Assembly: GCA_033763015.1 (NCBI GenBank)
Contig: JANRLA010000128.1
Span: forward strand, 1,562-65,561
Direction: 5' to 3'
Origin: Bacteroidia bacterium
GTDB lineage: Bacteria > Bacteroidota > Bacteroidia > J057 > JANRLA01
Length of the DNA stretch: 64,000 nt
In this document: positions 3,035-42,186 of the stretch, one piece after another
Layout: the number at the start of each line of letters is the position of its first letter
Numbering within the stretch: position 1 is the stretch's first letter
Notes under the pieces: generated by a model
Seen by the model: only the letters and a program-made list of their open reading frames with translations
Database searches by the model: none
Told to the model about the DNA's origin: nothing
Position numbers and translations under genes: made by a program

Positions 3035-3634
3035 ATGCTAGAGCCCGTCATTCTCCCTGCGGTGCTACAGGAGTTCGGGGGCCGGTTGCAGCAATTTGGC
3101 CGCAAAGCGCCCATTTTTGCCGAAGGCCAAGAGGCCCTGCACTACTACCAGCTCGACTACGGCCTGGTGAAGATGGCCAACTACGGGGCCAAGCGCGAGC
3201 GGACGCAGAAGTTCTTTTTCCCCGGTGAGAGTTTTGGCGAGCCCGCCCTGCTGGGCGGCTTTGCCTACCCCGCAGCAGCCGTAGCCACCGAGCCCAGCGG
3301 CGTATGGCTTTTGCCCCGCGCCGACTTCTACCACATGCTGCGCCAGGCCCCCGAGGCGCACTTGCGCCTCACGCGCCACCTCTGCAACCGGCTGCTGTAC
3401 AAAAACATGCTCCTCAGGGGGGCCGCCGAAGAGACCCCCGAAGCGCGCATCCTGGCGCTGCTGCGCTACTACCGCCGCCAAACCGCTGCCACGGGTGCGT
3501 TCCGGGTACCCTTTACGCGGCAGGAGATCGCCGACATGCTGGGCCTACGCGTCGAGACGGTCATCCGGGCCTGCCTGGAGCTTATCCGCAACGGGGCGCT
3601 ACAGCGGCAGGACCGCACATTAATTCTGCCGTAG
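3035..3634 (+). CDS. Crp/Fnr family transcriptional regulator
   Basis: 199 aa with an N-terminal cNMP-binding-like beta-roll (FFFPGESFGEPALLG). C-terminal HTH (FTRQEIADMLGLRVETVIRACLEL). Confidence 0.85.
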   Translation: MLEPVILPAVLQEFGGRLQQFGRKAPIFAEGQEALHYYQLDYGLVKMANYGAKRERTQKFFFPGESFGEPALLGGFAYPAAAVATEPSGVWLLPRADFYHMLRQAPEAHLRLTRHLCNRLLYKNMLLRGAAEETPEARILALLRYYRRQTAATGAFRVPFTRQEIADMLGLRVETVIRACLELIRNGALQRQDRTLILP

Positions 3635-3649
3635 AAAATCCCGTCAGTA

Positions 3650-3665
3650 TATGATGTAAATCATA
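3650..3665. promoter_or_regulatory. FNR/CRP-like palindrome (site A) upstream of cytochrome c-nosZ operon
   Basis: TATGATGTAAATCATA has perfect 6-bp inverted arms with a 4-bp spacer and the full core TGAT-N4-ATCA. Lies 51-66 nt upstream of ATG 3716 and just after the crp/fnr stop (3634). Confidence 0.45.
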
Positions 3666-3715
3666 GTTCGTGTGGTGGGAGGGGTGCGTACTTCGGCCCA
3701 AACCTCAACACACAC

Positions 3716-4192
3716 ATGGTACCACGCACAACCACGTATGCAGTCGTAGCGGCTTTTGTGCTCATCAGCGCGTTTGCCGTGAGCTGTGGCTCGGGTGGCG
3801 ACAAGCCCACCGAGAACACCACAACCCCCTCTCAGACCAACGCCGCTGGCACCCCCAAGCCCGGCATGATTCAACCCTCCGATGTCACCCTGGGGGCGCT
3901 AGACGCCGCCGTGGCCGAGAAAGGCAAAACCACCTACGACGTGAAATGCCAGGCCTGCCATAGCCTGGAGAGTAACCGGGTAGTCGGGCCGGGCTGGAAA
4001 GGCATCACCACCCGCCGCGAGCCCCACTGGATTCTGAACATGGCCGTGAACACCGATGCCATGCTGGCCGACGACCCCGAGGCCCAGAAGCAGCTTGAGG
4101 AGTGTCTGGTGCGTATGCCCAACCAGGGCCTCTCGAAAACCGAAGCCCGCGAGGTGCTCGAATTCATGCGCCAAAACGACGGTGTTAAGTAG
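3716..4192 (+). CDS. Mono-haem cytochrome c lipoprotein, nos-associated
   Basis: Lipobox-like AFAVSCGSG. Single CQACH haem-binding motif. Immediately upstream of nosZ. Confidence 0.8.
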   Translation: MVPRTTTYAVVAAFVLISAFAVSCGSGGDKPTENTTTPSQTNAAGTPKPGMIQPSDVTLGALDAAVAEKGKTTYDVKCQACHSLESNRVVGPGWKGITTRREPHWILNMAVNTDAMLADDPEAQKQLEECLVRMPNQGLSKTEAREVLEFMRQNDGVK

Positions 4193-4244
4193 CCTGTAAA
4201 ACCTACAACCTGGAACCCCTTTTACCTCTCCATACCAACCTCAT

Positions 4245-6239
4245 ATGAAAACCAGCCTTTTGCGCTACGGCCTGCTCCTGTTGGGGGTAGTGGCCGTGGT
4301 GGTGGTACTGCAGCTCACGCCGGGCTGCAAGTCGAGCAGCGCGACCGCCGTGGGCGGCGATGCGGCCAGCAAAGTGTACGTGGCCCCAGGCTCGTACGAC
4401 GAGTTTTACAACTTCGTTTCGGGCGGCTTTAGCGGCCAGCTCTCGGTGTACGGCCTGCCCTCGGGTCGGATGCTGAAGAACATCCCGGTGCTTTCGGTGA
4501 ACCCCGAAACGGGCTACGGCTACAGCGAAGAGACGAAAGGTATGCTCATGACCAGCCACGGCTTTGTGCCCTGGGACGATACCCACCACCCTGAGCTCTC
4601 GCAAACCGACGGCGTACCGGACGGTCGGTGGTGCTTCATCAACGGCAACAACACGCCCCGGATCGCACTGGTAGACCTGGCGTACTTCAAGACCCGCTCG
4701 GTGATCGAAATCCCGAACAGCGCGGGCAACCACTCCTCGCCCTTCATCACGGGCAACAGTGAGTACGTCGTGGCCGGTACACGCTTTAGTGTGCCCATTA
4801 CGGGCAACCAGGACGTGCCCATCAGCTCGTACAAAGAGAACTTCCAGGGCACCGTTTCGTTCATCCACCCCGATGCGGCGACGGGCAAAATGGAGGTCGC
4901 CTTCCAGATCCTGTGCCCCGGGGTCAACTTCGACCTGAGCCACGCGGGCAAGGGCCCCTCAGAGGGCTGGTTCTTTTTCAGCTGCTACAACACCGAACAG
5001 GCCTACAACCTGCTCGAGGTAAACGCCAGCCAGCGCGACAAAGACTTCATCATGGCCGTGAACTGGAAGAAGGCCGAGGAGTACGTCAAGGCCGGCAAGG
5101 GCAAAAAAGTAGCGGGCAAGCACCTGCACAACTGGTTCAACGAAAAGACCCAGATGGCCGAAACCGAAGTGCGTACCGAGGTCATCCAGCTCGACCCCAA
5201 GGAGCTGAAAGACATCGTGTACTTTGTGCCCTGCCCGAAATCGCCCCACGGGTGCGACGTAGACCCCTCGGGCAAGTACTTCATTGGCTCGGGTAAGCTC
5301 GCGGCGCTGATTCCGGTCTTCTCGTTCGAGAAGCTGCAGAAGGCCATTGCGGCAGGTGACTTTGAGGGCGAGTTTGGCGGCCTGCCGGTGGTTAAGTACG
5401 AGTCGGCGCTACACGGCGAGGTGAAAAAACCCGGCCTGGGCCCGCTGCACACCGAGTTCGACGGCAAAGGCTTTGCCTACACCTCGATGTTCGTTTCCTC
5501 CGAAATCGTGAAGTGGGACATCGAGAAGCTCGAGGTAGTAGACCGCGTACCGACCTACTACTCCATCGGTCACCTCTGCATCCCCGGCGGCGACAGCAAG
5601 AAGCCCTGGGGCAAGTACGTCATCGCGTACAACAAGATCACCAAAGACCGCTACCTGCCCACGGGCCCCGAGCTCACGCAGAGCGCACAGCTCTACGACA
5701 TCTCGGGCGATAAGATGCAGCTGCTGCTCGACTTCCCGACCATCGGCGAGCCCCACTACGCCCAGGCACTACCCGCCGAGCTGGTGACCAAGAACAGCAA
5801 GAAGATCTACCCCATCGGCGAAAACGAGAACCCCTACGTAGCCAAAGGCGAAAAGGAAACGAAGGTGGAGCGCAAAGGCAAGGAAGTGCACATCTGGATG
5901 ACGGCCATCCGCAGCCACCTGACGCCCGACAACATCGAGGGCATCAAGCTCGGCGACGAGGTGTACTTCCACGTTACGAACCTGGAGCAGGACTGGGACG
6001 TGCCCCACGGCTTTGCCGTCAAAGGCGCCAACACGTCCGAAATCTTGATCATGCCCGGCGAAACCCTGACCCTAAAGTGGGTGCCCGACCGTGTGGGGAT
6101 CTTCCCCTTCTACTGCACCGACTTCTGCTCGGCGCTGCACCAAGAAATGCAAGGCTACGCCCGGGTATCGCCCGCAGGCTCAAACGTACCCCTGACCTGG
6201 AAAACGACCAGTAAAGACGCCGCCGGTGCGGCGCAGTAA
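4245..6239 (+). CDS. nosZ: Nitrous-oxide reductase, clade II (Sec-type signal)
   Basis: 664 aa. Hydrophobic N-terminal signal without a twin-arginine motif. C-terminal CuA motif FYCTDFCSALHQEMQGY. Followed by nosB-like/L/D/F/Y. Confidence 0.95.
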   Translation: MKTSLLRYGLLLLGVVAVVVVLQLTPGCKSSSATAVGGDAASKVYVAPGSYDEFYNFVSGGFSGQLSVYGLPSGRMLKNIPVLSVNPETGYGYSEETKGMLMTSHGFVPWDDTHHPELSQTDGVPDGRWCFINGNNTPRIALVDLAYFKTRSVIEIPNSAGNHSSPFITGNSEYVVAGTRFSVPITGNQDVPISSYKENFQGTVSFIHPDAATGKMEVAFQILCPGVNFDLSHAGKGPSEGWFFFSCYNTEQAYNLLEVNASQRDKDFIMAVNWKKAEEYVKAGKGKKVAGKHLHNWFNEKTQMAETEVRTEVIQLDPKELKDIVYFVPCPKSPHGCDVDPSGKYFIGSGKLAALIPVFSFEKLQKAIAAGDFEGEFGGLPVVKYESALHGEVKKPGLGPLHTEFDGKGFAYTSMFVSSEIVKWDIEKLEVVDRVPTYYSIGHLCIPGGDSKKPWGKYVIAYNKITKDRYLPTGPELTQSAQLYDISGDKMQLLLDFPTIGEPHYAQALPAELVTKNSKKIYPIGENENPYVAKGEKETKVERKGKEVHIWMTAIRSHLTPDNIEGIKLGDEVYFHVTNLEQDWDVPHGFAVKGANTSEILIMPGETLTLKWVPDRVGIFPFYCTDFCSALHQEMQGYARVSPAGSNVPLTWKTTSKDAAGAAQ

Positions 6240-6266
6240 GCGCGTTGTGTGTAGTGTAATTAACCG

Positions 6267-6301
6267 GGCGCGGGGGTGGCCCCTACGGCCGCCCCCCCGC
6301 C
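6267..6301 (+). other. GC-rich stem-loop between nosZ and downstream gene
   Basis: GGCGCGGGGGTGGCC-cctac-GGCCGCCCCCCCGCC, about 15-bp stem with one G-U and one mismatch. No T-run, so more likely an intra-operon stabiliser or attenuator than a terminator. Confidence 0.35.
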
Positions 6302-6327
6302 TGGTGGGTAGCTAACCCCCCTTACGT

Positions 6328-6954
6328 ATGAAACCCCTTTCCCGCAGCCTCATTGCAGTGGCTGCCCTGAGCCTGGCCGCGCTCTACGTAGTGCCTATCT
6401 GGCGCATCGACCTCTCCGCCCCCCAGTACCCCGAAGGACTGGGCATGAAAATCTGGATTGACCACCTGAGTGGCCAAATTGATCAAATCAACGGCCTGAA
6501 CCACTACATCGGCATGGCCGTCATTACCGAAGACCAATTCAAGGAATTTCTATACATGAAGTACCTGGTGGCAGTGCTCATTGGGCTGGGCCTCGTGGCC
6601 GCCGCCTGGAACAAGCGCTGGCTGGTACTCACCTGGACTACCTCGATAGCCGCGATGGGCGTACTGGCCCTTTACGACATGTACCAGTGGGGCTACAAGT
6701 ACGGCCACGAGCTCGACCCCACCGCTGCCATCAAGGTGGAGGGCATGGCCTACCAGCCGCCGCTCATTGGGTTTAAGCAACTGCTCAACTTCGGCGCGTG
6801 GTCGCTGCCCGATATCGGGGGCATCCTGCTGTGGCTGGCCCTACTGGTCGGCGCGGGCGTATGTTTCTACGAGTGTTACCTGCGGGGCCGTAAGCAGCGG
6901 CGCAGCCAGACAACCCAAACCACCGCCACCCGTGCGACCACACTTCTGGCGTAA
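6328..6954 (+). CDS. nosB: NosB-like transmembrane protein (gene immediately downstream of clade II nosZ)
   Basis: 208 aa, about 4-5 hydrophobic helices. The position matches the nosB slot described for clade II nos clusters. Confidence 0.55.
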   Translation: MKPLSRSLIAVAALSLAALYVVPIWRIDLSAPQYPEGLGMKIWIDHLSGQIDQINGLNHYIGMAVITEDQFKEFLYMKYLVAVLIGLGLVAAAWNKRWLVLTWTTSIAAMGVLALYDMYQWGYKYGHELDPTAAIKVEGMAYQPPLIGFKQLLNFGAWSLPDIGGILLWLALLVGAGVCFYECYLRGRKQRRSQTTQTTATRATTLLA

Positions 6955-7381
6955 CCTGGCAGTAGCCCTCACGGCGCTAGGCACTGCGTGTGCGCCCAAG
7001 GCCCCCAGCATTGACTACGGGCACCTGGAGTGCAGCCACTGCCGCATGACGGTGGTAGACGATCAGTTCGGGGCGCTGCTCCTGACGACCAAGGGTCGGC
7101 AGTACGCCTTTGATGCGCCCGAGTGCCTGGTGCCGTTCCTGGAGTCGGGCACCGTGCCAACGGGCGAGGTGAGAGCACTCTACGTGTCAGACTACGCTGC
7201 GCCCGGCGCGCTCCTCGAAGCCACCGGCGCGTTATACCTCTACAGCCCCAAGCTGCAAAGCCCCATGGCCGGTAACGTGGCCGCCTTCGCCACCGAAGAT
7301 GCCCGGCACCACGTACATCATACCCTGGGTGGTACCTTGCTCACATGGCCCGAGGTGCTCGAGCGGTTTTCTAAGCGGTAG
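6932..7381 (+). CDS. nosL: NosL copper-chaperone lipoprotein
   Basis: ORF-track start 6767 overlaps the upstream gene by 188 nt. In-frame GTG at 6932 gives a signal peptide, (M)RPHFWRNLAVALTALGTAC. Body contains HCRMTV...AFDAPEC...SPMAGNVAAF, typical of NosL. Confidence 0.7.
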   Translation: MRPHFWRNLAVALTALGTACAPKAPSIDYGHLECSHCRMTVVDDQFGALLLTTKGRQYAFDAPECLVPFLESGTVPTGEVRALYVSDYAAPGALLEATGALYLYSPKLQSPMAGNVAAFATEDARHHVHHTLGGTLLTWPEVLERFSKR

Positions 7382-9359: not shown

Positions 9360-10119
9360 GATATTAAAGTATTCGCTGGTCAACCTGCTGCGTAGCCGCG
9401 TGGTGCTGGCCTACACCGTGTGCCTCTTCGCCATCACTACAGCGCTGTTTGCCCTGGAGTCTGACCCCAGCAAGGCCCTGGTGAGCCTGAGCCAGGTGGT
9501 ACTCAACGTGGTGCCGCTGGTGTGCCTGCTCTTCACCGCAATCCAGTACTACAACTCGCTGGAGTTCACCGAGCTGCTGGTGGTGCAACCCCTGCGGCGG
9601 CGCACGATTCTGCTGGGGCAGCTACTGGCCCAGTGGGTGGCGGTATCGTTTGCCTACCTGGTGGGGGTGGTACTGCCGCTCTCGGTCTTCAGCCCGGGGG
9701 CCAACAGTGTCATGCTTTCGGCCTCGGGGGTGCTGCTGGGGGCCATCGGGGTATCGCTGGGCTTCCTCATCGCGCTGGCCAACCGCGACAAGGCCCGGGG
9801 CATTGGCGTGGCCATCCTGCTGTGGCTAGTGTTTGTGGTGGTGTACGATGGCCTGCTGCTGCTTGCGCTGCTGCTCTTGGCCGACTACCCCATCGAGCCC
9901 TGGGTGGTGCCCCTGGCCTCGCTCAACCCCATCGATCTGGCGCGCATCCAGGTTATGCTGCGCATAGACCTGGCGGCGATGCTGGGCTACACCGGGGCGG
10001 TGTACAAGCAGTTTTTCGGCTCGCTGGGTGGCCTGCTGTACACCTTTGGCCTGCTGCTTGTCTGGCTGGTCTGGCCCGCCTGGGTAGCGCTGCGACTGTT
10101 CCTGAAGAAGGACTTCTAG
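9352..10119 (+). CDS. nosY: NosY ABC-2 type permease
   Basis: Six hydrophobic segments. ATG at 9352 overlaps the nosF stop (ATGGGTAA). ORF-track start 9319 is also possible. Confidence 0.85.
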   Translation: MGKILKYSLVNLLRSRVVLAYTVCLFAITTALFALESDPSKALVSLSQVVLNVVPLVCLLFTAIQYYNSLEFTELLVVQPLRRRTILLGQLLAQWVAVSFAYLVGVVLPLSVFSPGANSVMLSASGVLLGAIGVSLGFLIALANRDKARGIGVAILLWLVFVVVYDGLLLLALLLLADYPIEPWVVPLASLNPIDLARIQVMLRIDLAAMLGYTGAVYKQFFGSLGGLLYTFGLLLVWLVWPAWVALRLFLKKDF

Positions 10120-32604: not shown

Positions 32605-34550
32605 GGCGGCGCTACTTCCCGGTTTGGTTGCGGGTCGTGGTGCTGGCCCTGCTGGTGCTGGGGGTAGCCTTGGGGGCCATTACACTTGCCCAGCGCGCGC
32701 GGGTGGCCGAGGCGTACCTCAGGCGCACGGCAGCGTCGGTGGCCGAGCGGCCGGGCTGGTCGCTTACCTACACTGCCCCCCACGGCACGGGTTGGCGCTC
32801 GGTACGGCTGGATACCCTTACCCTGGCGCGCAGCGCGGGCCCCTCGCTCCGCCTGGTGGGCCTGACGCTCACGCCCAACCTGTGGCAGGCGCTGGGCGGC
32901 AACCTAGCCCTGGCGGCAGTGGCGCTCGATAGCCTGCGGGTAGACTACCCCTTCGATGCACCGCCCATAGCCGATACAAGCCGCAAACCGGCTGGCGAGG
33001 AGCCCCGTGCGGTCGATTTTTCGGTCTACCACCGCACAGCCCAGCGGCTGCTCGGGCGCCTGCCCGGGGCCCTCGCGCTGCGCCGGGGCCTGGTCACCTT
33101 TCGGCACGGTAAGGGCATCGATACCCTGCTACTGAACGATCTTACCCCCCAGGCCGAGGGCTGGGCCGGTACCCTGGCCCTGCCCAACGACACCGTAGAG
33201 CTCTACGGCGGCCCCATGGGTGGGGGCTACCAGCTGGGCTGGCGCCGGGGCTCGGTAGCCGCATGGGCGCTACCGGCGCTCGAGGCCTACTGTGGGGTGG
33301 TGGTGGGCGGCAACCGGGGCAGCCTCTCGGCGGTGCTGGGGGGGTCGGGCCGCGTGCAGCTGGCGCTTGCGGGCGAGAACGTTAGCGTAAAACACCCCCG
33401 GCTGGCACGCGGGCTGGTTGGCTTTGCCCACCTGCAGCTTACGGCCGAAGGCACCACCGTCGAAGGCGGTATCGCCATTGACAGCAGCCGCAGCCGCTTT
33501 GCCCTCAATGGCTACACGGGCTATTGGGGTGGGGCCTGGCAGGTGCGCCCCGACACGGCCCTTAGCTTCGTCTGGGCGACCGATACCCTACAGGCTAACG
33601 CGGTGCTCGACAGCCTGCCGACCAACCTGGTGCCCAACCTACAGGGCCTGCGTGTGGCCGGGCGCTTCCGCCAGCGGCTTTACGCCAGCGTGGGCCTGAG
33701 CCACGGCGATACGGCCATCTTCGAGCCCACCCTATGGTGCGACAGCTGCCGCGTGACGCGCTGGGGCAAGGCCAACCCGCTCATCCTCAATGGCACCTTT
33801 ACCCACCGCACCTACCGCGAAAACCGCGCACTGGTGCTGGGCCCCGAAAACCCCACGTACACACCCCTGGGGGGCATTAGTAAGTACGTGCAGCACGCGG
33901 TCGAGATCTCGGAAGACGGCGGCTTTTACGGCCACCGGGGCTTCTACCCCCAGATGATGGCCAAAGCCCTGGCCGAAAACCTGCGCCAGGGCCGCATTGT
34001 GCGCGGGGGCAGCACCATCAGCATGCAGCTGGTGAAAAACGTGTTCCTCACCCCCGACAAAACTTTGAGCCGCAAGCTGGAAGAGGCCGTCTTGGTGTGG
34101 CTCATCGAAAGCCAGCGGCTGGTGCCCAAAGCCCGCATGCTGGAAGTGTACCTGAACCTGATTGAGTGGGGGCCCGGCGTGTACGGCGCTGCCGAGGCCA
34201 GCCAATACTACTTTAACAAGCCCGTGGGCCAGGTCTACTTCCCCGAAGCCATCTTTTTGGCGCTGGTGGTGCCCAGCCCGCGCAACTTCAGGTACCACTT
34301 CTTGCCCAGTGGGCAGCTAAAGCCCTACGTGGCCCAGTACTACGACCTGATCCTGGGGCACCTGGAGCGCCGGGGCCTCTTGCAACCCGGCGAACGGGTG
34401 GGCTGGAACATCGAGACCTTCCGGCTGGCGGGGCCCGCGCTGCGCGAGCTGGGCCAGACGCCGGATACGACCTACGTGCCCGACCCCACGCTCCAGCTAC
34501 TCGACGCCGAGATAGACGACCTGTTCCGCGAGCTCGGTGTCGGCGGCTGA
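32601..34550 (+). CDS. Peptidoglycan glycosyltransferase (GT51) with long N-terminal membrane-anchored domain
   Basis: GT51 motifs ISEDGGFYGHRGF and RGGSTISMQLVKN in the C-terminal third. N-terminal TM helix plus ~400 aa of unassigned domain. Confidence 0.8.
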   Translation: MRRRYFPVWLRVVVLALLVLGVALGAITLAQRARVAEAYLRRTAASVAERPGWSLTYTAPHGTGWRSVRLDTLTLARSAGPSLRLVGLTLTPNLWQALGGNLALAAVALDSLRVDYPFDAPPIADTSRKPAGEEPRAVDFSVYHRTAQRLLGRLPGALALRRGLVTFRHGKGIDTLLLNDLTPQAEGWAGTLALPNDTVELYGGPMGGGYQLGWRRGSVAAWALPALEAYCGVVVGGNRGSLSAVLGGSGRVQLALAGENVSVKHPRLARGLVGFAHLQLTAEGTTVEGGIAIDSSRSRFALNGYTGYWGGAWQVRPDTALSFVWATDTLQANAVLDSLPTNLVPNLQGLRVAGRFRQRLYASVGLSHGDTAIFEPTLWCDSCRVTRWGKANPLILNGTFTHRTYRENRALVLGPENPTYTPLGGISKYVQHAVEISEDGGFYGHRGFYPQMMAKALAENLRQGRIVRGGSTISMQLVKNVFLTPDKTLSRKLEEAVLVWLIESQRLVPKARMLEVYLNLIEWGPGVYGAAEASQYYFNKPVGQVYFPEAIFLALVVPSPRNFRYHFLPSGQLKPYVAQYYDLILGHLERRGLLQPGERVGWNIETFRLAGPALRELGQTPDTTYVPDPTLQLLDAEIDDLFRELGVGG

Positions 34551-35227
34551 TGGATTCGCCCAGCACCCCCCTTGCCGTTGTGCCCACCGCCGACGGTAGC
34601 CCTACGCTGTACCACCCCGGGCTACGCACCCACTACCACAGCCAGGCAGGCGCTGCCGCCGAAAGCCGCCACGTCTTTTTGCAGCACACGGGCCTGGCAG
34701 ACCTGCTGGCCACGCTGCCCGAAGTGCACGTGCTGGAGGTGGGCCTGGGTACGGGCCTCAACGCCCTGCTCACCGCCGAACTGGCCCGCCAGTACCCCAG
34801 CTGCAGGGTGCACTACCACGCCGTAGAGCCCCTGCCGCCCCCGCCCGCCGTGCTCGCCGACTACTACCGCCACCTGGCCGCCCCCGCGGGCTGGGCCGAG
34901 GCCCTGTACCGCCAGCCCAACGCCCCCCAGCTGCTCGCCGGCCTGCGGTTTACCTGGTGGGCGTGCCGCTGGGAAGCGGCCCCAGCGGCCCCGGGCTGGG
35001 CCCACGCCCTGTACTACGACCCCTTCGACCCCGCCGTAGCGCCCGAGCTCTGGACCGAAGCCGCCCTGCTACAGGCCTACCACGCCCTGGCCCCCGGTGG
35101 GCGCCTGGCGACCTACAGCGTGCGCGGCGAAACCCGCCGGCTGCTGCGCCGGCACGGCATTGCCCACAGCCGCCCCCGGGGCTTTGGCCCCAAACGCGAG
35201 ATGCTGGTGGTGGTGCGGGCGGCGTAG
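34550..35227 (+). CDS. MnmC/MnmD-like SAM-dependent tRNA methyltransferase domain protein
   Basis: DGSPTLY...HS..GA..ES.HVF, SAM-binding-like EVGLGTGLN, YYDPFDPAVAPELWT. Confidence 0.65.
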   Translation: MDSPSTPLAVVPTADGSPTLYHPGLRTHYHSQAGAAAESRHVFLQHTGLADLLATLPEVHVLEVGLGTGLNALLTAELARQYPSCRVHYHAVEPLPPPPAVLADYYRHLAAPAGWAEALYRQPNAPQLLAGLRFTWWACRWEAAPAAPGWAHALYYDPFDPAVAPELWTEAALLQAYHALAPGGRLATYSVRGETRRLLRRHGIAHSRPRGFGPKREMLVVVRAA

Positions 35228-35822
35228 CCGCTTGCTGACCGCCCCAAGACGTAGCGGGGTTGCTGGGGCCGTTGCCGTGCGCAGGGGCGCGACGCTGCGC
35301 AGTAGCCCTAGGCGGGCACCCCGGGGCAGCCGGGTGCGCGGTCGGTCCTTCGGCGGGGGCCTCTAGAGGGCTGGCGTCTTGGGCCGCCGGGTGGTCGGGG
35401 GGTGGCGTTTGGCCGGGGTAGAGGGGCACGGGCTCGCCGCGGTAGCGGCCGGTGTGGTACCAGTCGGCAATTAGGCCATCGAAGGCCGGGTCGTGTACGT
35501 AGGTTTTGTCATCGAGGCAGGGCATGGGCGGCGGTGCGGATAGGGTAGGGCGCTAAGGTGCGCGCCTACCCCCGCTGCGGCCTAGCGCGGCCTCCACGCG
35601 TCTTCCACAGGGTGCAGAAGTGGGGGATGTGTAAACACTAATATTCGACTTAGCATCCAATTGAGAAATCTCATTGATTGAAAGTTTGACATTGATAATG
35701 TCGATGCTAGTAGATATTCACAACTAACTAGATGCAGAAAACTTTCAGTGTTCATAAGAAGCTAAAATACCACACACTGCCTGGTCGTTATGTGGGCATT
35801 AACTATTTGAGGGTTATGGCTT

Positions 35823-36530
35823 ATGGCAAAGGACTTAATCAAGACAAATCAGGTACAAGAGCCAAAGATTAGCGCAGCAAAACTCGCTGCATATCTGGAT
35901 GGCGATGCGAGTAAAAGAAATAAGATACTCAGAGAACATAAATTTCCAGATGAGTATAAGAATGCGGTATATACAAAACTATATCCAGTTGTTAGTCGAT
36001 TTATTAAAGGTAATTGCAATATTGAGATATTAGAGAACGAACTATCAAAACTATCTCATATTGTGCCAGTTAGTGAATTCGAAAAGACTAATAATAAAAC
36101 TCTTCAAACTGCAATAGAACATCTAATTGATACAGATTTTTCTCTAATACAGAGATATAGTTCAGTTCCTGTGCCTTATAAAAGAAGAACAATTAAAATA
36201 TCAGGTGTAAGCGTTTCGTATATTCCCGTAGGCATGTTGGAGGGTACTTTCAAGTCAAAAAAATATTTTGGCTTGATCGCACTAAACCCTAGTAAATCTG
36301 GTAGCTTAAAGGGAGATGCTGCAAAACCATTTGCGGTACTTTCAAAATTGTTTGCAGATCAATTCGATTTCGAGGATGGAGAGGTCTCTACTAAAATGTG
36401 TTTTTCAATTGATGTTTATTCTAAGAGTGTTATAGAGTGTCCGAAAAGCCATGTAAGAATCGAGAAAAACATCCGAATTTCCTGTGATGAAATTAAAAAA
36501 ATATGGCCAAATGTTGTTAATATTTCATAG
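35823..36530 (+). CDS. Orphan hypothetical protein encoded on a ~25-30% G+C island
   Basis: The only long ORF in the AT-rich segment. 235 aa, K/I/N/S-rich, no signal peptide or TM segment, and no motif I can assign. Confidence 0.7.
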   Translation: MAKDLIKTNQVQEPKISAAKLAAYLDGDASKRNKILREHKFPDEYKNAVYTKLYPVVSRFIKGNCNIEILENELSKLSHIVPVSEFEKTNNKTLQTAIEHLIDTDFSLIQRYSSVPVPYKRRTIKISGVSVSYIPVGMLEGTFKSKKYFGLIALNPSKSGSLKGDAAKPFAVLSKLFADQFDFEDGEVSTKMCFSIDVYSKSVIECPKSHVRIEKNIRISCDEIKKIWPNVVNIS

Positions 36531-36540
36531 TTTTTGCTGG

Positions 36541-39500
36541 CTATTTAATTAATACTTGATCGTTTTGGTGTAGTTGAATCTCATTTAGCAGGAATAGGGC
36601 GTCTTTGACGCTGGGGCAGGGTTTGGCCTGCAGTTGCAGCAGCTCGCGCACCTGGCGCAGCTTCAGGCGCTCGGGGTGGGCGTTGGCGTAGGCCAAGAGG
36701 CTGCCAAACACCGGGCCGTTGAGGTAGCCCTCGGCGGGCTTTTGCGGGAAGTAGCACTTGAGCGTGGCCTCGGCCAGCACCACCCGCTCAAAGCCCAGGG
36801 TCTGGGCCAGGGCACGGATGCGCAGGGTATCGAGCAGGGCAAAGGTGGGCGCGGGGATGGGCCCAAAGCGGTCTATAAGCTCGCGGGCAAGGGTTTGCAG
36901 GGCGGCCTCGGTGTCGGCTTCGGCGATGCGCTGGTAGAAGCCCAGGCGCTCGGCCACGTTGGGGATGTAGGCGTCGGGGATGCGCACCTCCTGGTCGGTT
37001 TCGACGGTGGCCTCGCGGACGGCGGCCCCGGCGTGGGGCACGTGGTCGGCCAGCTCGGGGAAGTGTTCCTCTTTGAGCTCCTGGATGGCCTCGTTGAGGA
37101 TGCGGTGGTAGAGGTCGTAGCCGACCTCGGAGATAAAGCCGCTCTGCTCGGCGCCCAGGATGTCGCCGGCCCCGCGGATGTCGAGGTCGCGCATGGCAAT
37201 CTGCAGGCCCGAGCCCAGCTCAGAGAACTGCTCGAGGGCCTCCAGGCGCTTGCGGGCGTCGGTGGGCAGGGTGCTCAGGGGCGGGGCAATGAGGTAGCAG
37301 AAGGCCTTGCGGTTGCTGCGGCCCACGCGGCCGCGCAGCTGGTGCAGGTCTGACAGGCCGTAGGTGTGGGCGTTGCTGATGAGGATGGTGTTGGCGTTGG
37401 GGATGTCGAGCCCGCTCTCGACGATGGTGGTGCACACCAGCACATCGGCCTCGTTGGCGATGAACTTGAGCATGACTTCCTCGAGCTGCTCGCCGTCCAT
37501 CTGGCCGTGGCCGACCAGGATGCGAGCGTCGGGCACCAGGCGCTTGATCATGGCCGCGTGCTCGTCGAGGTCTTTGATGCGGTTGTGCACGTAGAAGACC
37601 TGGCCGCGGCGCTGGAGCTCGTAGGCGATGGCGTCGCGCACGAGCTCGCTGTCGAAGCCCGTCACCACGGTGTCTACCGGCTTGCGGTTGGGCGGCGGGG
37701 TGGCAATGATGCTCAGGTCGCGGATGCCCAGCAGCGAGAACTGCAGCGTACGCGGGATGGGCGTGGCCGTGAGGGTGAGGGTATCGACCGAGGCCTTGAA
37801 GAGCCGCAGCTTCTCTTTGGCGGCCACGCCAAACTTGTGCTCCTCGTCTATGACCAAGAGCCCCAGGTTTTTGAAGGCCACGTCGCGCGAAAGCAGGCGG
37901 TGGGTACCGATGACGATGTCTAGCGTACCGGCCTTTAGGCGGTTAAGGACATCGGTCTGCTCCTTCTTGGTTTTCAGGCGGTTAAGGTAGTCTATGCGCA
38001 CCCCGAAGCCTTCCATGCGCTCGGCAAACGAGCGGGCGTGCTGCATGGCCAAGAGGGTGGTGGGCACGAGCACGGCCACCTGGCGGCCCTCGACGACGGC
38101 CTTGAAGGCGGCGCGGATGGCGATCTCGGTTTTGCCGAAGCCCACGTCGCCGCAGACCAGGCGGTCCATGGGGTGGGGGGCTTCGAGGTCGGCTTTGACG
38201 GCCTCGGTGGCTTTTTCCTGGTCGGGGGTGTCTTCGTACAAAAAGCTGGCCTCGAGTTCGGTCTGCAGGTAGGTGTCGGGGCCAAAGGCGGTGCCGGTTT
38301 GGCGTTTGCGCTGGGCGTAGAGGGCCACCAGGTCGAAGGCCAGTTGCTTGACGCGCGACTTGATCTTGGCCTTGGTTTTCTCCCAGCTGCCCGAGCCCAG
38401 CTTCGATAGGCGGGGCACCGAGCCCTCTTTGCCCGCGTACTTGCTGATTTTGTGCAGGGTATTGACCGGTACGAAGATGGCGTCGTCGTCTTGGTAGAGG
38501 ATGCGTACGGCCTCTTGCACGGCCTGCCCGACGGTGATGCGTGTGAGGCCCGCAAAGCGCCCAATGCCGTGGTGCACGTGCGTAACGAAGTCGCCGGGCC
38601 GCAGCTCGAGCAGGTCTTTGAGCGTGAGGGCCTGGTTGCGGCTAAAGCCCTGGCGCGAGCGGAAGCGGTGGTGCCGCTCAAAGATCTGGTGGTCGGTGTA
38701 GAGGGCCAGGTTGAGCTGGCGGTCTACAAACCCGGCCGAGAGCGTGGGGTGCAGGTACTGGGCCTGGGGCAGGCCCTCTTCGGTGGCCAAGATTTCGCGC
38801 AGGCGGCGCTCCTGCTTCTCGCTGTCTATCGTCAGAAACAGGCCGGTGCCCTGGGCCCTGAGGCCGCGCAGGTGCTCGAAGAGCAGGCTAAACTCTTTGC
38901 GGAAGCTGGGCTGGGGCGTGCCCTCCCAGCGCAGCTCGTGGGCGTAGTCGCGGTAGTAGCGGCGGCCCAGCTCGAGGGTCTTGAAGCCCTCGAGGGCTGC
39001 TTTGAGGGCCGGGCCGGGCACAAAGCGCTCGGCGGGGGGGCGCTGGGTGGCGTTGCCACCGGTTTCGGTGTGCAGGGCGGCGTAGAGCTGCTGGGCGCGG
39101 GTAAAGACTTTGTCGAGCTCCTCGAGCGTGAGCCGGAGGTCGTCGAGCACCCAGAGGGTCTGGCTGGCGACGAACTCGGAGAGCGGGATGAGCGCCTCGC
39201 GGTGCAGCCGGGTGGTCACGTTGGGCAGGATGGCAAGCTCGTCCTGGCTGCCGGTACTGAGCTGGCTGATGGGGTCGAAGGGCCGGATGGACTCGACCTC
39301 GTCGCCCAGGAACTCGAGCCGGTGGGGCGTTTCGTGGTTAAAGGCAAATAGGTCTACGATACCGCCGCGCTGGGCGTACTGGCCGGGCTGGTACACGGTG
39401 TCTACGGCCTCGAAGCCGTAGTCGTCGAGCACCTCAACCACGAACTCGATGCCCGGGGCCTCGCCGCGCTGCACCACGAGGGTGCTTTTCTGGAGCGTCT

Positions 39501-39912
39501 GGCGGGTGAGTACCTGCTCGGCCAGGGCCTCGGGGTAGGTAACCACCACCACGGGCTCACCGGCCGTTCGGCGCAGGAGGTCGAGCACCTCGGTGCGCTC
39601 GACAACGTTGGCGTTGTCGAGGGTATCGACCTGGTAGGGGCGTTTGGCGCTGGCCGGGAAGCTCAGCACACGGGTGGTGGGCAAGAGCTGCTCCAGGTCG
39701 TTTTGCAGGTACAGGGCGGCCTCGCGGTCGGCCATCACGACCCAGAGCGGGGCCGCGGTTTCGAGCTGCAGCGCGGCCAATACAAACGCATACTGGCTGC
39801 CTACGGGGCCACTTAAAGTGCAGCGCTGGGGGCCGGGGGCCCTCAGCGCTGTGGCCAGGGCTTGCAGGTCGGGCGATTGGCGGTAAGGGGCCAGCAGATC
39901 GGGCAGGTGCAT
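36541..39912 (-). CDS. mfd: Transcription-repair coupling factor Mfd
   Basis: Start taken at MHLPDLLAPY (ORF-track start 40074 adds 54 implausible aa). Walker A GDVGFGKTE, DEEH box LLVIDEEHKFGV. About 1123 aa. The last ~18 codons are AT-rich. Confidence 0.93.
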   Translation of the reverse strand: MHLPDLLAPYRQSPDLQALATALRAPGPQRCTLSGPVGSQYAFVLAALQLETAAPLWVVMADREAALYLQNDLEQLLPTTRVLSFPASAKRPYQVDTLDNANVVERTEVLDLLRRTAGEPVVVVTYPEALAEQVLTRQTLQKSTLVVQRGEAPGIEFVVEVLDDYGFEAVDTVYQPGQYAQRGGIVDLFAFNHETPHRLEFLGDEVESIRPFDPISQLSTGSQDELAILPNVTTRLHREALIPLSEFVASQTLWVLDDLRLTLEELDKVFTRAQQLYAALHTETGGNATQRPPAERFVPGPALKAALEGFKTLELGRRYYRDYAHELRWEGTPQPSFRKEFSLLFEHLRGLRAQGTGLFLTIDSEKQERRLREILATEEGLPQAQYLHPTLSAGFVDRQLNLALYTDHQIFERHHRFRSRQGFSRNQALTLKDLLELRPGDFVTHVHHGIGRFAGLTRITVGQAVQEAVRILYQDDDAIFVPVNTLHKISKYAGKEGSVPRLSKLGSGSWEKTKAKIKSRVKQLAFDLVALYAQRKRQTGTAFGPDTYLQTELEASFLYEDTPDQEKATEAVKADLEAPHPMDRLVCGDVGFGKTEIAIRAAFKAVVEGRQVAVLVPTTLLAMQHARSFAERMEGFGVRIDYLNRLKTKKEQTDVLNRLKAGTLDIVIGTHRLLSRDVAFKNLGLLVIDEEHKFGVAAKEKLRLFKASVDTLTLTATPIPRTLQFSLLGIRDLSIIATPPPNRKPVDTVVTGFDSELVRDAIAYELQRRGQVFYVHNRIKDLDEHAAMIKRLVPDARILVGHGQMDGEQLEEVMLKFIANEADVLVCTTIVESGLDIPNANTILISNAHTYGLSDLHQLRGRVGRSNRKAFCYLIAPPLSTLPTDARKRLEALEQFSELGSGLQIAMRDLDIRGAGDILGAEQSGFISEVGYDLYHRILNEAIQELKEEHFPELADHVPHAGAAVREATVETDQEVRIPDAYIPNVAERLGFYQRIAEADTEAALQTLARELIDRFGPIPAPTFALLDTLRIRALAQTLGFERVVLAEATLKCYFPQKPAEGYLNGPVFGSLLAYANAHPERLKLRQVRELLQLQAKPCPSVKDALFLLNEIQLHQNDQVLIK

Positions 39913-40146
39913 ACAAAAAATGACGGGCCCAGCCCCGTGGGGTGGGGTGGGCGTGCTGTGGCAGGCTAACCCCGCCAGGGGTGTGCAAAGTTCGGGTGCG
40001 GGTTGCAGCTCTGCACGGGGCGTTGGCAAAGTTTGGGGTAGGGGCAGGCGTGCCAGTAGGTACTTTCGGCACAAATTCTGCTAGAATGCCCTAGGTATCT
40101 ACCGGCCAATTCGGTAGTTTTCTTGCTTCACTACCCACGAACAACC

Positions 40147-42186
40147 ATGCGCACCTTTCAACGAACCGTACTCGCCCTGGTGGTCGCTGCGCCTCTCTGG
40201 ACCCGTGCACAGACGCCCAAAGTATCGGCGTTTGAGTCTACGGCCCTGCCCGAGGTCGTCACCTCGGTAGCTTTTACCCCCAACAACCAGTACCTGCTCT
40301 TGGGCACTGAAAAGGGTGTGGTGGCCCGCAGCACGATGACACACCTGCGCGACGTGTCGCGCCTGTTTGTCTTGGGTGGCGACAAGCCCGTGGTCTCGCT
40401 GGCAGTATCGAACGACAACAAGTACGTGGCCGCGCTCAACGCACTGGGTCGGCTGGTGCTCTGGGAGGCCGCCACGAGCTCCAGCGCCGAGCTTTCGTTC
40501 GAGCTTTCCAGCTCCAACGCCAAGCCCCAGGTCGTCTTTAGCCCCGACAACAAGTATTTCGCGGTGAGCTCTAAGCTCAAGGTGGTCATTATGGAGACCC
40601 GCAGCCGCGCCATTGTCAAAGAGCGGCCTGCCGGGTTTGTTACTGGCCTGGCGTTTTCGCCCAATAGCCAGCAACTGCTAATGGGCCAGAGCATCAACGC
40701 CACGGTGACCGTCTGGGCCTTTGGCCCCGATAGCAGCTACACCCTGGGCGGCGCTGCGGGTAGCTGGACAGCCAAGGCCGGAAGTGTCCTCAGTGCCGAC
40801 TACAGCCCCGATGGCCGCTACATTGTTGCTACGTACAAGGGTGGCGGGGTAGCCCTCTACGATGCCCAAAGCCGGAAAGAGCTGGCTGCCAGCCAATTGA
40901 AAGACGATATCACCCTTGTACGCTTTACCCTTGATGGCCAGTACCTGGTTACGAGCAACGAAACGGGCAAGGTGAAGGTCTGGACCCTGCCCGACCTAAA
41001 ACTGAAGCTGAGCCTGCACGAGTACGAAAGCGCCCTGACCTCGTTCGCCCTCTCGGCCGATGGCAAGCACTTTGTCGGTACCGACGGCAAAGCCCCCAGC
41101 CTGTACGACCTGAGCTGGCTGCAACTGGGTAAGTGGAAACCGGCCGATACCGAAGGCCCCGCCATTGCGCTGCTGAGCCCCCGGGCAGGCAGCCAAACGC
41201 TCAACGACGGTGCGCTGTACGCGGGCTCGCCTCAGCGACGGATTAAGGTCTCGGCGCGTATTAACGACCTGTCGGGTGTGCAGCGAGTAGAAATCAACGG
41301 CAAACTGGCCCAGCCGACCGAGCCCGGCGGCAACCGCTACGAAAGCGAGGGCCTCATGGCGCTGGAGGAGAACACCTACGTGCCGCTCGAAATCCGCGCC
41401 GTAGACTCGGTGGGCAACGTTACCCAGCAACGCTACGGGGTTGAATACAAGCCGGTACAGTTGGTGGGCGCCGAGAACTACCACGCCCTCTTCATTGCGG
41501 TGTCTGACTACCAGGACGAGAAGATCCCGAGCCTAGACCAGCCCGTGGCCGATGCCGAGCGCCTGGCCAACGTGCTCGTGGACCGCTACACGTTTAAGCG
41601 TGAAAACGTCGAGGTGATCAAAAACCCCACCCGCGCCGAGCTTGTGCAGCGCTTTGAAGACCTGGCCGCCCGCGTGCAGAGCACCGACAACCTGTTGGTC
41701 TTCTACGCCGGGCACGGGGTGTGGGACGAAACCATGGGCCAGGGGTTCTGGCTACCCGCCGACGCCGAAGACGGCAACCGGGCCAACTGGTTCCCCAACA
41801 ACCAGCTCAAAGACTACATCGCCTCGATCCAGAGCAAGCACACGCTGCTCATTACCGACGCCTGCTTTTCGGGCGGCATTTTCAAGACCCGCGCCTTTGG
41901 CGAAGACGCCAGCCCGGCCATTGAAGAGATGTACAAGCTCAAGAGTCGCAAGGCCATGACCAGTGGTGCCCTGAAGCCCGTGCCCGACAAGAGCGTGTTC
42001 CTGGCGCAGCTCATCCAGCACCTGGAGCAAAACCCCGACGATTACCTGACCGCCGCCGAACTGTTCAACGGCTTCCGTACCGAGGTAATCAACAGCAGCC
42101 CTACCCACCAGGTACCGCTGTACGGTGAAATTGGCTCGACGGGCGACCAGGGCGGTGAGTTTGTGTTTATTCGCCGCAAGGAATAA
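40147..42186 (+). CDS. Secreted WD40-like beta-propeller plus caspase (peptidase C14) domain protein
   Basis: Signal peptide MRTFQRTVLALVVAAPLWTRAQ. About 7 propeller blades (e.g. VTGLAFSPNSQQLL, SADYSPDGRYIVAT, GKVKVWTL). C14 His/Cys dyad VFYAGHGV and LITDACFSGG. Confidence 0.85.
   Translation: MRTFQRTVLALVVAAPLWTRAQTPKVSAFESTALPEVVTSVAFTPNNQYLLLGTEKGVVARSTMTHLRDVSRLFVLGGDKPVVSLAVSNDNKYVAALNALGRLVLWEAATSSSAELSFELSSSNAKPQVVFSPDNKYFAVSSKLKVVIMETRSRAIVKERPAGFVTGLAFSPNSQQLLMGQSINATVTVWAFGPDSSYTLGGAAGSWTAKAGSVLSADYSPDGRYIVATYKGGGVALYDAQSRKELAASQLKDDITLVRFTLDGQYLVTSNETGKVKVWTLPDLKLKLSLHEYESALTSFALSADGKHFVGTDGKAPSLYDLSWLQLGKWKPADTEGPAIALLSPRAGSQTLNDGALYAGSPQRRIKVSARINDLSGVQRVEINGKLAQPTEPGGNRYESEGLMALEENTYVPLEIRAVDSVGNVTQQRYGVEYKPVQLVGAENYHALFIAVSDYQDEKIPSLDQPVADAERLANVLVDRYTFKRENVEVIKNPTRAELVQRFEDLAARVQSTDNLLVFYAGHGVWDETMGQGFWLPADAEDGNRANWFPNNQLKDYIASIQSKHTLLITDACFSGGIFKTRAFGEDASPAIEEMYKLKSRKAMTSGALKPVPDKSVFLAQLIQHLEQNPDDYLTAAELFNGFRTEVINSSPTHQVPLYGEIGSTGDQGGEFVFIRRKE

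Follow-up and report, generated by a model that had tools for sequence, protein, structure and literature searches.

An AT-rich single-gene insert overlapping the 3' end of mfd in a Bacteroidia genome encodes a probably non-catalytic member of a widespread family with a predicted Cas4/RecB-like nuclease fold

We analysed a 64,000-nt stretch of a Bacteroidia bacterium genome (assembly GCA_033763015.1, contig JANRLA010000128.1), hereafter the window, in which an AT-rich island carrying a single gene for a 235-aa protein sits between the core genes mnmC2 and mfd. We think it fairly probable that this island is an acquired, single-gene cassette of the conflict type, whose product has a Cas4/RecB-like fold and no longer has catalytic activity. 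Three lines of evidence carry this reading: the composition and authenticity of the island, the family and predicted fold of its protein together with the loss of the predicted active site in this copy, and the range of mobile elements on which relatives of the gene are found.

The island is 970 bp long with 34% G+C, against 63% in the flanks on both sides. An initial annotation, made from the sequence alone, had described its abrupt edges from hand counts of G+C, and these counts were exact (18/60 for 35641-35700, 15/60 for 36001-36060 and 45/60 for 35521-35580); edges were placed by a maximum-likelihood two-boundary fit (Table 1). The island is unique in the window, every other 500-bp bin having a G+C of at least 0.50. 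A possibility was that it had arisen as an assembly chimera. This was ruled out, since the same junctions were found in three other assemblies (GCA_964440845.1 and two independent Logan contigs, SRR12989705 and SRR12977061), which were 100% identical to the window across 35500-36700 and whose flanks carried strain-level single-nucleotide polymorphisms (SNPs), mostly at third codon positions of mfd. The island is real, acquired DNA. Incidentally, we noticed that the SNPs between the window (25823-46530) and GCA_964440845.1 (L001), 92 in 20.7 kb, fall in tight clusters, with 15 in 34064-34247 and 42 in 36850-39460 (the latter mostly mfd third positions), and that several kb-long stretches are identical, including 34248-36849, which holds the island. 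The pattern is a patchy, recombination-like mosaic between two strains.

As had been claimed, the island contains exactly one credible open reading frame (ORF). The chance of finding 235 stop-free codons at the island's composition is ~3e-9. The encoded protein is rich in K, S and I, and no transmembrane segment is expected in it because its maximal 19-residue hydropathy is only 0.91. In a word-indexed homologue search nothing was retrieved apart from the window protein, which carries the annotation 'MAG: hypothetical protein SFY70_10940 [Bacteroidia bacterium]' (MAG, metagenome-assembled genome). An exhaustive HMMER search over 1.84 billion cluster representatives, in contrast with the initial view of an orphan of unknown family, retrieved full-length relatives in 512 clusters (50% identity) at E<=1e-3, and in 145 at E<=1e-10. 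These relatives are ~220-240 aa long, can be aligned with the window protein over their whole length and share 23-30% identity with it. An alignment of 132 family members (A1) showed the conserved pattern P14-R-I-S-x-N-K-L-x-E23-Y, R31-R, K40-x-P42 and Y50 in the first half, and G128-V-x-x-S, P135-[DE]136, G150-x-x-K153, K158, C193, D197, P207 and C221-x-E-I-x-x-x-W228 in the second. Neither Pfam nor NCBIfam matched the window protein or any of the 132 members, and PHROGs gave noise only for the window protein. With PADLOC-DB v2, a comparison that excludes systems named after 2023, such as integron-borne ones, the window protein had no match and the 132 members only scattered, single marginal ones. 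Judged by sequence, the window gene thus belongs to a large, widespread family that is absent from the curated libraries searched.

The initial annotation had also proposed a structure search for this protein. An AlphaFold2 model computed with alignment A1 (pLDDT 94.9, pTM 0.90) has a helical N-terminal half (residues 18-102), a beta-rich core (113-205) and a long C-terminal helix as a cap. With Foldseek against the PDB, the top 12 matches were all RecB/Cas4-type nuclease domains (Dna2, AdnA/AdnB, the Argonaute-associated Cas4-like ACE1, AddB), followed by RecE, MGME1 and Cas4, with E values from 1e-3 to 0.3 and TM scores of ~0.45-0.49. Against viral models (BFVD), PD-(D/E)XK or RecB-family exonucleases were recovered, with E values down to 8e-5. 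The structure comparison therefore pointed to a fold, and only to Cas4/RecB-type nuclease domains, whereas a search of the PDB with the sequence profile of the family was empty. In the model, the core that follows the helical region has the alpha-beta-beta-beta-alpha-beta order of the PD-(D/E)xK fold. P135-[DE]136 lies at the start of strand 135-143 (beta-2), K153 within strand 146-155 (beta-3), and E23 on helix 1. The first two are the canonical 'PD' and 'xK' places of PD-(D/E)xK enzymes, and E23 is located like motif I of RecB-type nucleases. Canonical members, with Glu on helix 1, Pro-Asp/Glu at the beta-2 start, Lys in beta-3 and an invariant Asp on beta-4, are thus predicted to be Mg-dependent DNA nucleases. 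They do not appear to be Cas4 proper: the 132 members match no Pfam or NCBIfam model, cas genes adjoin only one locus, and of the four cysteines that would hold an iron-sulphur (Fe-S) cluster the family conserves just two, C193 and C221.

The window protein departs from its relatives at the predicted active site. Glu23 is present in 120/131 other members, Asp/Glu136 in 120/131 and Lys153 in 124/131; one or two of these residues are missing from 25/131, and all three from none. The window protein is the only one of the 132 aligned sequences to combine E23A, D/E136V and K153A (Table 1). It therefore has no PD-(D/E)xK catalytic motif, the family consensus E23...P135-[DE]136...x-x-K153 being itself partly canonical. 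The initial annotation saw no catalytic motif because this copy has lost the predicted catalytic residues. Yet the protein agrees with the family in 22 of the 26 columns with a conservation of 85% or more, among them P135, G150, K158, C193, D197, P207, C221 and W228. It is long-branched, its nearest relative being 29% identical, whereas the median identity between a member and its nearest relative is 44% across the family, and it groups with no family subgroup. A loss focused on the predicted catalytic residues, with the structure kept, suggests a pseudo-enzyme or a detoxified nuclease and not random decay. The window protein is probably catalytically dead, and with the predicted catalytic residues of the family replaced, it is not likely to act as a nuclease or a toxin. 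The earlier guess of a solitary nuclease thus agreed with the fold but not with the activity expected of this copy, which would be either a detoxified relic or a DNA-binding pseudo-nuclease.

The right edge of the island is not intergenic, as had been assumed, but lies 57 bp inside mfd, a gene convergent with the island ORF, the two stop codons being 10 bp apart. In the last 18 codons of mfd, the G+C at third codon positions (GC3) is 0.28-0.32 as compared with 0.89 for the whole gene, and the minimum among the 1084 other 18-codon windows is 0.61. This AT-rich tail still encodes the conserved C-terminal helix LFLLNEIQ..., which aligns with LFVVQEIE and FLLKNIVN of Mfd homologues. The tail is foreign in composition yet homologous in sequence, and therefore the incoming DNA carried its own mfd-like 3' end. 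A parallel case was found in a proteobacterial MAG (L005), at the 3' end of gyrB (9780-9805). There, the last 8 codons have a GC3 of 0.50, below every other 8-codon window and against 0.95 overall, and the conserved ...RRQFIE.NAL...LDI end is retained. Foreign DNA would thus have put a homologous, AT-rich stretch in place of the final 18 codons of mfd. This could have occurred by same-slot cassette transfer with a crossover within mfd, as in the minimal mobile elements of Neisseria, or through an integrative element that makes good the 3' end of the gene it targets, here mfd.

The mfd tail also bears on another explanation, namely that the island is the decayed right end of a larger element, inserted at the mfd 3' end with a replacement tail, of which only functionless cargo is left. 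Phage 21 and e14, both in icd, are examples of elements restoring their target gene, and a foreign but homologous mfd tail is what they would leave. The long branch of the protein would fit, as would the absence of any vehicle, inverted repeats, attC or significant direct repeats, and the 400-bp GC-rich gap without called gene to the left. However, neither an integrase or att remnant nor a displaced native mfd tail is visible left of the island, and a neutral relic in stop-rich DNA would not be expected to keep an intact ORF with the 22 structural positions. We regard this explanation as unlikely.

In a survey with one genome per species, 80 loci of the family were found. They come from Bacteroidota, Alpha-, Beta- and Gammaproteobacteria, Myxococcota (2-3 copies per genome), Planctomycetota and Verrucomicrobiota, as well as from Cyanobacteria, Acidobacteriota, Chloroflexota and Streptomyces. 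The G+C of the family gene ranges from 0.34 to 0.71 and is more than 10 points below that of the flanks in 24/79 loci. An IS1595-family transposase (PF12762, NF033547) adjoins the family gene in 12/80 loci, and in four of them (L011, L031, L072 and L075) the gene lies within the IS1595 terminal inverted repeats, with perfect 8-bp target duplications (Table 1). An integron integrase (TIGR02249, cut-off 265) stands beside the gene in an Acidovorax MAG (L020, 466 bits) and in a Rhodoferax MAG (L025, 449 bits), and the former gene is bracketed by attC-like repeats (AAGCCGACCCGCAT.CTGCGG.CGGCTTA...GTTAGC) in the pattern of a cassette array. In Azospirillum tabaci, the family gene is in a prophage, beside a cI/cro pair. 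Lone AT-rich inserts were found as well: one between gyrB and gyrA in the proteobacterial MAG (G+C 0.38-0.44 versus 0.65), one between nrdA and nrdB in Neisseria lactamica, and others that directly follow the nrd operon, in five Bacteroidota and in Chitinimonas. As a side observation, in a Neisseria MAG (L041) the gene is bracketed by 65-bp direct repeats (1975-2039 and 2829-2889) with the uptake-sequence core GCCGTCTGAA, an arrangement consistent with cassette exchange by transformation.

Collectively, these vehicles show the family to be mobile cargo, with integron integrases moving attC-flanked cassettes and IS1595 transposases moving the gene as a passenger. We infer that the family takes part in genetic conflict, as a defence, exclusion or addiction gene, since occurrence both on these vehicles and in lone inserts fits such a role. 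An origin of the family in phages was considered and rejected on account of its near-absence from phage collections, with 0/50,697 phage records and one match in 2.9 million IMG/VR contigs. Plasmids gave two weak partial matches only.

We looked at the genes that accompany the family. A conserved, acidic ~75-aa protein is encoded divergently just upstream of the gene in 13 mostly alphaproteobacterial loci, including the prophage. It has the motif MEEYFAE...LC.G.IT..EA...G.GYYL...D......VLAKF.S..AA (L031 5732-5974 and L004 9734-9973, both on the minus strand, and 11 more loci), matches nothing in Pfam or NCBIfam, and is found inside IS1595 elements as well as in the prophage. It may be a regulator or an inhibitor of the nuclease. 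It has no counterpart in the window, and the island contains no partner ORF with which the 235-aa gene could form a toxin-antitoxin pair. Separately, a P63C-domain protein (PF10546) was seen alongside the family gene in three loci from two phyla (L011 4802-5896, L010 4909-5853 and L084 3453-4487); in L011 its gene shares the IS1595 element with the family gene and separates the latter from the transposase. Otherwise, no conserved partner gene emerged from 146 immediate neighbours.

The initial annotation had seen in the island the usual footprint of a stand-alone defence or abortive-infection gene. The compositionally foreign, single-gene insert stands, but the protein has no PADLOC match, few relatives neighbour defence genes, and the family is nearly absent from phages. 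In its strong form, this explanation would have the window gene encode an active stand-alone anti-phage or abortive-infection nuclease, cutting invading or host DNA on infection. The nuclease fold argues for it, as does the presence of the family on integron cassettes, on transporter insertion sequences (IS) and at a cI-proximal prophage site, and so do the intact ORF despite a stop-rich composition and the few loci that adjoin known defence genes (PDC-S05, Cas3c/Cas5c, AbiEi, PD-T4-6 or mad genes). Integron cassettes are, moreover, a known reservoir of defence genes according to a preprint (bioRxiv 10.64898/2026.03.17.712381). Against it stand the full replacement of the triad, which no other of the 132 members shows, the lack of consistent PADLOC matches, the rarity of defence neighbours, and a window without partner gene or recognisable promoter. 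We therefore consider an active defence nuclease in the window unlikely, while among canonical members of the family a new single-gene function in defence, exclusion or addiction may reasonably be sought.

The lone inserts directly at the 3' ends of conserved DNA-metabolism genes (mfd, gyrB/gyrA, nrdA/nrdB) raised another possibility, that of a homing-type selfish cassette, whose nuclease would cut the core gene in genomes lacking the cassette, which would then be copied in together with its donor flank during repair. PD-(D/E)xK is among the known folds of homing endonucleases, and co-conversion would give foreign yet homologous tails such as those of mfd (18 codons) and gyrB (8 codons). These tails are compatible with homing but not specific to it. 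However, clades of the family track the host phylum and not the insertion site, and no lineage tracks a target. In particular, the nrd-adjacent genes of Neisseria and Chitinimonas group with betaproteobacterial integron cassettes and not with the nrd-adjacent clade of Bacteroidota, which ruled out a cross-phylum, nrd-specific lineage. Many copies are moved by a transposase or an integrase, the window copy has lost the triad, and recombination between homologues of 30% and 68% G+C is implausible. We thus strongly doubt that the island is a homing cassette. A broader version would have a selfish or conflict nuclease reduced to a minimal one-gene cassette, riding integrons and IS1595 elements, colonising the 3' ends of mfd, gyrB and nrdA by cleavage and repair or by target-restoring integration, and silenced after invasion in the window copy. 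If true, it would explain the foreign yet homologous tails of both mfd and gyrB; we hold it to be speculative and improbable.

Several observations weigh against the reading of an acquired, now probably non-catalytic conflict cassette. In Myxococcota (Nannocystales-type; L048, L071, L080; L056, L061, L066, L067, L082), there are 2-3 paralogues of native G+C in conserved synteny, for instance between rsmB and rpe. This suggests that these copies are long resident, unlike the AT-rich inserts elsewhere, and their synteny may reflect a cellular role instead of one in conflict. Among the neighbours, the enrichment of known defence genes is no more than mild, each occurring once or twice. In the curated libraries, no annotation ties any member of the family to a function. 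On the enzymatic side, E23, D/E136 and K153 are presumed to be catalytic from fold and motif position only; the acidic residue of (D/E)xK is not found in the family, which has A/G-I-K instead, and hhalign of the family profile against an approximate lambda exonuclease sequence gave no match. Since its ORF is intact and its structural residues are retained, the window protein may also act through other residues. Finally, the nearest database Mfd is 60% identical and not syntenic, the 3' neighbours differ (dinB-like, START and Crp-like genes), and no empty site or donor for the island was found via database Mfd homologues; for this reason the route of entry remains inferred.

The Myxococcota copies lead to the last explanation, namely that the gene is an ancestral cellular one for DNA repair or metabolism, linked to mfd, nrd or gyr, of which only the composition is odd. 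Its position beside nrdAB in 8 loci from two phyla, and also beside gyrBA and mfd, is in line with such a gene, as are the native-G+C copies between rsmB and rpe and the near-absence of the family from phage and plasmid collections. Yet a 29-point drop in G+C with sharp edges is incompatible with long residence, the distribution is sporadic, the gene is carried by IS elements and integrons, there is no conserved partner or operon, and the window copy lacks the conserved active site. An ancestral housekeeping gene is thus very improbable.

Table 1. Coordinates of the features discussed (window positions, except for the four IS1595 elements, which are given in the coordinates of their loci)
Feature	Position	Strand	Evidence or remark
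AT-rich island, horizontally acquired DNA	35627..36596	none	composition profiles, maximum-likelihood two-boundary fit, base counts, 3 identical assemblies
AT-rich leader, 191 bp, containing a 6+3+6 palindrome	35632..35822	+	without credible ORF, sigma-70-like promoter or Rfam match
9-bp direct repeat AATCTCATT	left 35667..35675; right 36577-36585	+ (left)	shuffle test: chance level
235-aa ORF (stop included)	35823..36530	+	ORF list, family search, alignment, AlphaFold2 model, Foldseek
Codon 23, GCA = Ala; predicted motif-I acidic position on helix 1, Glu in 92% of family	35889..35891	+	column counts
Codon 136, GTA = Val, after invariant Pro135 ('PD', beta-2 start)	36228..36230	+	column counts, model
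Codon 153, GCA = Ala ('xK' lysine, beta-3)	36279..36281	+	column counts
Stop and last 18 codons of mfd, island-type AT-rich DNA	36541..36597	-	GC3, alignment of Mfd C-termini
mfd (transcription-repair coupling factor, 1123 aa)	36541..39912	-	Pfam domains on called gene, homologues
mnmC2-type tRNA methyltransferase, left core neighbour	34550..35227	+	NCBIfam NF033855, 144.5 bits (cut-off 136); PF05430
IS1595 element L011, Hymenobacter polaris	3806-7111		duplication AAAAAAAT
IS1595 element L031	4617-6718		duplication TAATAAAG
IS1595 element L072, Brevundimonas	3481-6743		duplication TTTCGGGC
IS1595 element L075	1881-5507		duplication ACCGCAAA

In agreement with the initial annotation, no transposase or tRNA was found near the insert. 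The window has no tRNA and no IS1595 transposase, and the one tyrosine recombinase that it encodes is Xer-like and lies near 60.8-61.7 kb, 24 kb from the island. Neither inverted repeats nor a target duplication surround the window gene, and the window has no intI, attC-like inverted repeat or flanking repeat above chance that would place the gene in an integron. More generally, IS1595 ends, MITE-like inverted repeats with duplications (MITE, miniature inverted-repeat transposable element) and attC were absent around the window gene and around other lone copies. No CRISPR-cas genes are near the island in the window. The 9-bp border repeat that had been pointed out, with the suspicion that it was fortuitous, does exist, but it has no meaning as a border feature. 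Its score was reached by 168/1000 shuffles and equals the median of the 80 related loci; it was therefore rejected as an att site. Read on the opposite strand, its right copy supplies the mfd codons AAT-GAG-ATT (N-E-I). The resemblance of the left repeat region to the tail of mfd failed the shuffle test too. The palindrome GACATTgatAATGTC (35688-35702) is present as described and occurs once in the window. It was not retained as an operator, 6-bp arms in AT-rich DNA not being significant by themselves. No sigma-70-like promoter was seen on the plus strand of the island, this consensus not being that of Bacteroidota promoters, and no terminator or Rfam family was found in the island.

Between mnmC2 and the island lies the GC-rich gap of ~400 bp without called gene (35228-35631). 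A minus-strand ORF, 34950-35525, begins in it at 35525 (MPCLDDKTYVHDPAFDGLIADWYHTGRYRGEPVPLYPGQ...) and continues into mnmC2 in antisense orientation. NCBIfam does not match this ORF, which may be a true small gene, a remnant, or an open frame that high G+C has produced on the antisense strand. On the other side, the mfd ORF extends 54 codons upstream (39913-40074, minus strand) to a TTG start, giving 1177 aa, and this extension is probably not translated. Just past mfd, at 40123-42186 on the plus strand, is a gene whose 687-aa product combines WD40/beta-propeller repeats at the N-terminus with a caspase-like Peptidase_C14 domain at the C-terminus (Pfam). Such an architecture is frequent in conflict or programmed-death systems.

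For this genome, the practical conclusion is modest: the gene was acquired and is probably non-catalytic. At the level of the family, an apparent orphan turned into a group of at least 512 clusters, undescribed by curated libraries and with a confident nuclease-type fold, and the range of its vehicles, from integron cassette and transporter-IS passenger to prophage gene and lone insert, is unusually broad. The window copy would provide a natural variant with a dead predicted active site. In both mfd and the gyrB of L005, a core gene of the essential type had its final codons rewritten by foreign DNA and yet was not destroyed, and these rewritten tails bear on how minimal cassettes enter between core genes.

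Both the fold and the lifestyle, a solitary PD-(D/E)xK nuclease as mobile cargo, are of known kinds, and it is the family that is new to the curated libraries searched. The Cas4/RecB nuclease domains (AddB, AdnA/AdnB, Dna2, RecE, MGME1, ACE1) share its predicted fold over the whole protein, with a helical arch at the N-terminus ahead of the alpha-beta-beta-beta-alpha-beta core, and are the only consistent Foldseek matches. In contrast to them, the family has no sequence-level match, lacks the four-Cys Fe-S cluster of Cas4, AddB and Dna2, has x-x-K in place of (D/E)xK, and stands alone, without helicase, Cas or Argonaute partner; the TM scores reach only ~0.45-0.49 and the window copy lacks the triad. 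Shedu (SduA) and type IV restriction enzymes are likewise solitary nuclease-fold genes without methyltransferase partner, on mobile elements and between core genes. Unlike Shedu, the family has no DUF4263, a single marginal SduA match in 1/132 members with PADLOC, and a weak association with defence islands. Homing endonuclease genes similarly lie beside conserved DNA-metabolism genes, as does T4 mobE, a free-standing one between nrdA and nrdB, and they share with the family a nuclease fold and flanks that are apparently co-converted. Lineages of the family differ from them in not tracking a target and in being moved by other machineries, and the window copy differs in its lack of catalytic residues.

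As to vehicles, passenger genes are reportedly carried by IS1595-family 'transporter IS' of the ISPna2 and ISNwi1 groups. In L011, L031, L072 and L075 the family gene is accordingly downstream of the DDE transposase and inside GGC/GGG-type inverted repeats, whereas the window has no transposase, inverted repeats or duplication, and the family also travels in integrons, in a prophage and as lone inserts. Cassettes encoding phage defence have been described (Kieffer 2025 and Darracq 2025, as cited in bioRxiv 10.64898/2026.03.17.712381). The family resembles integron cassettes in being a single ORF of ~0.7-1 kb, with L020 and L025 beside intI; the window island differs in having no attC-like repeat, intI or array, and in its host, a member of Bacteroidota. 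The minimal mobile elements of Neisseria are said to be cassettes between conserved genes that are swapped via flanking homology. Like them, the window insert is a lone cassette between core genes without mobility genes, and the foreign tails of mfd and gyrB suggest crossovers inside the flanking genes. The likeness extends to Neisseria itself, in which family members are found between nrdA and nrdB and with 65-bp flanking repeats that hold the uptake-sequence core.

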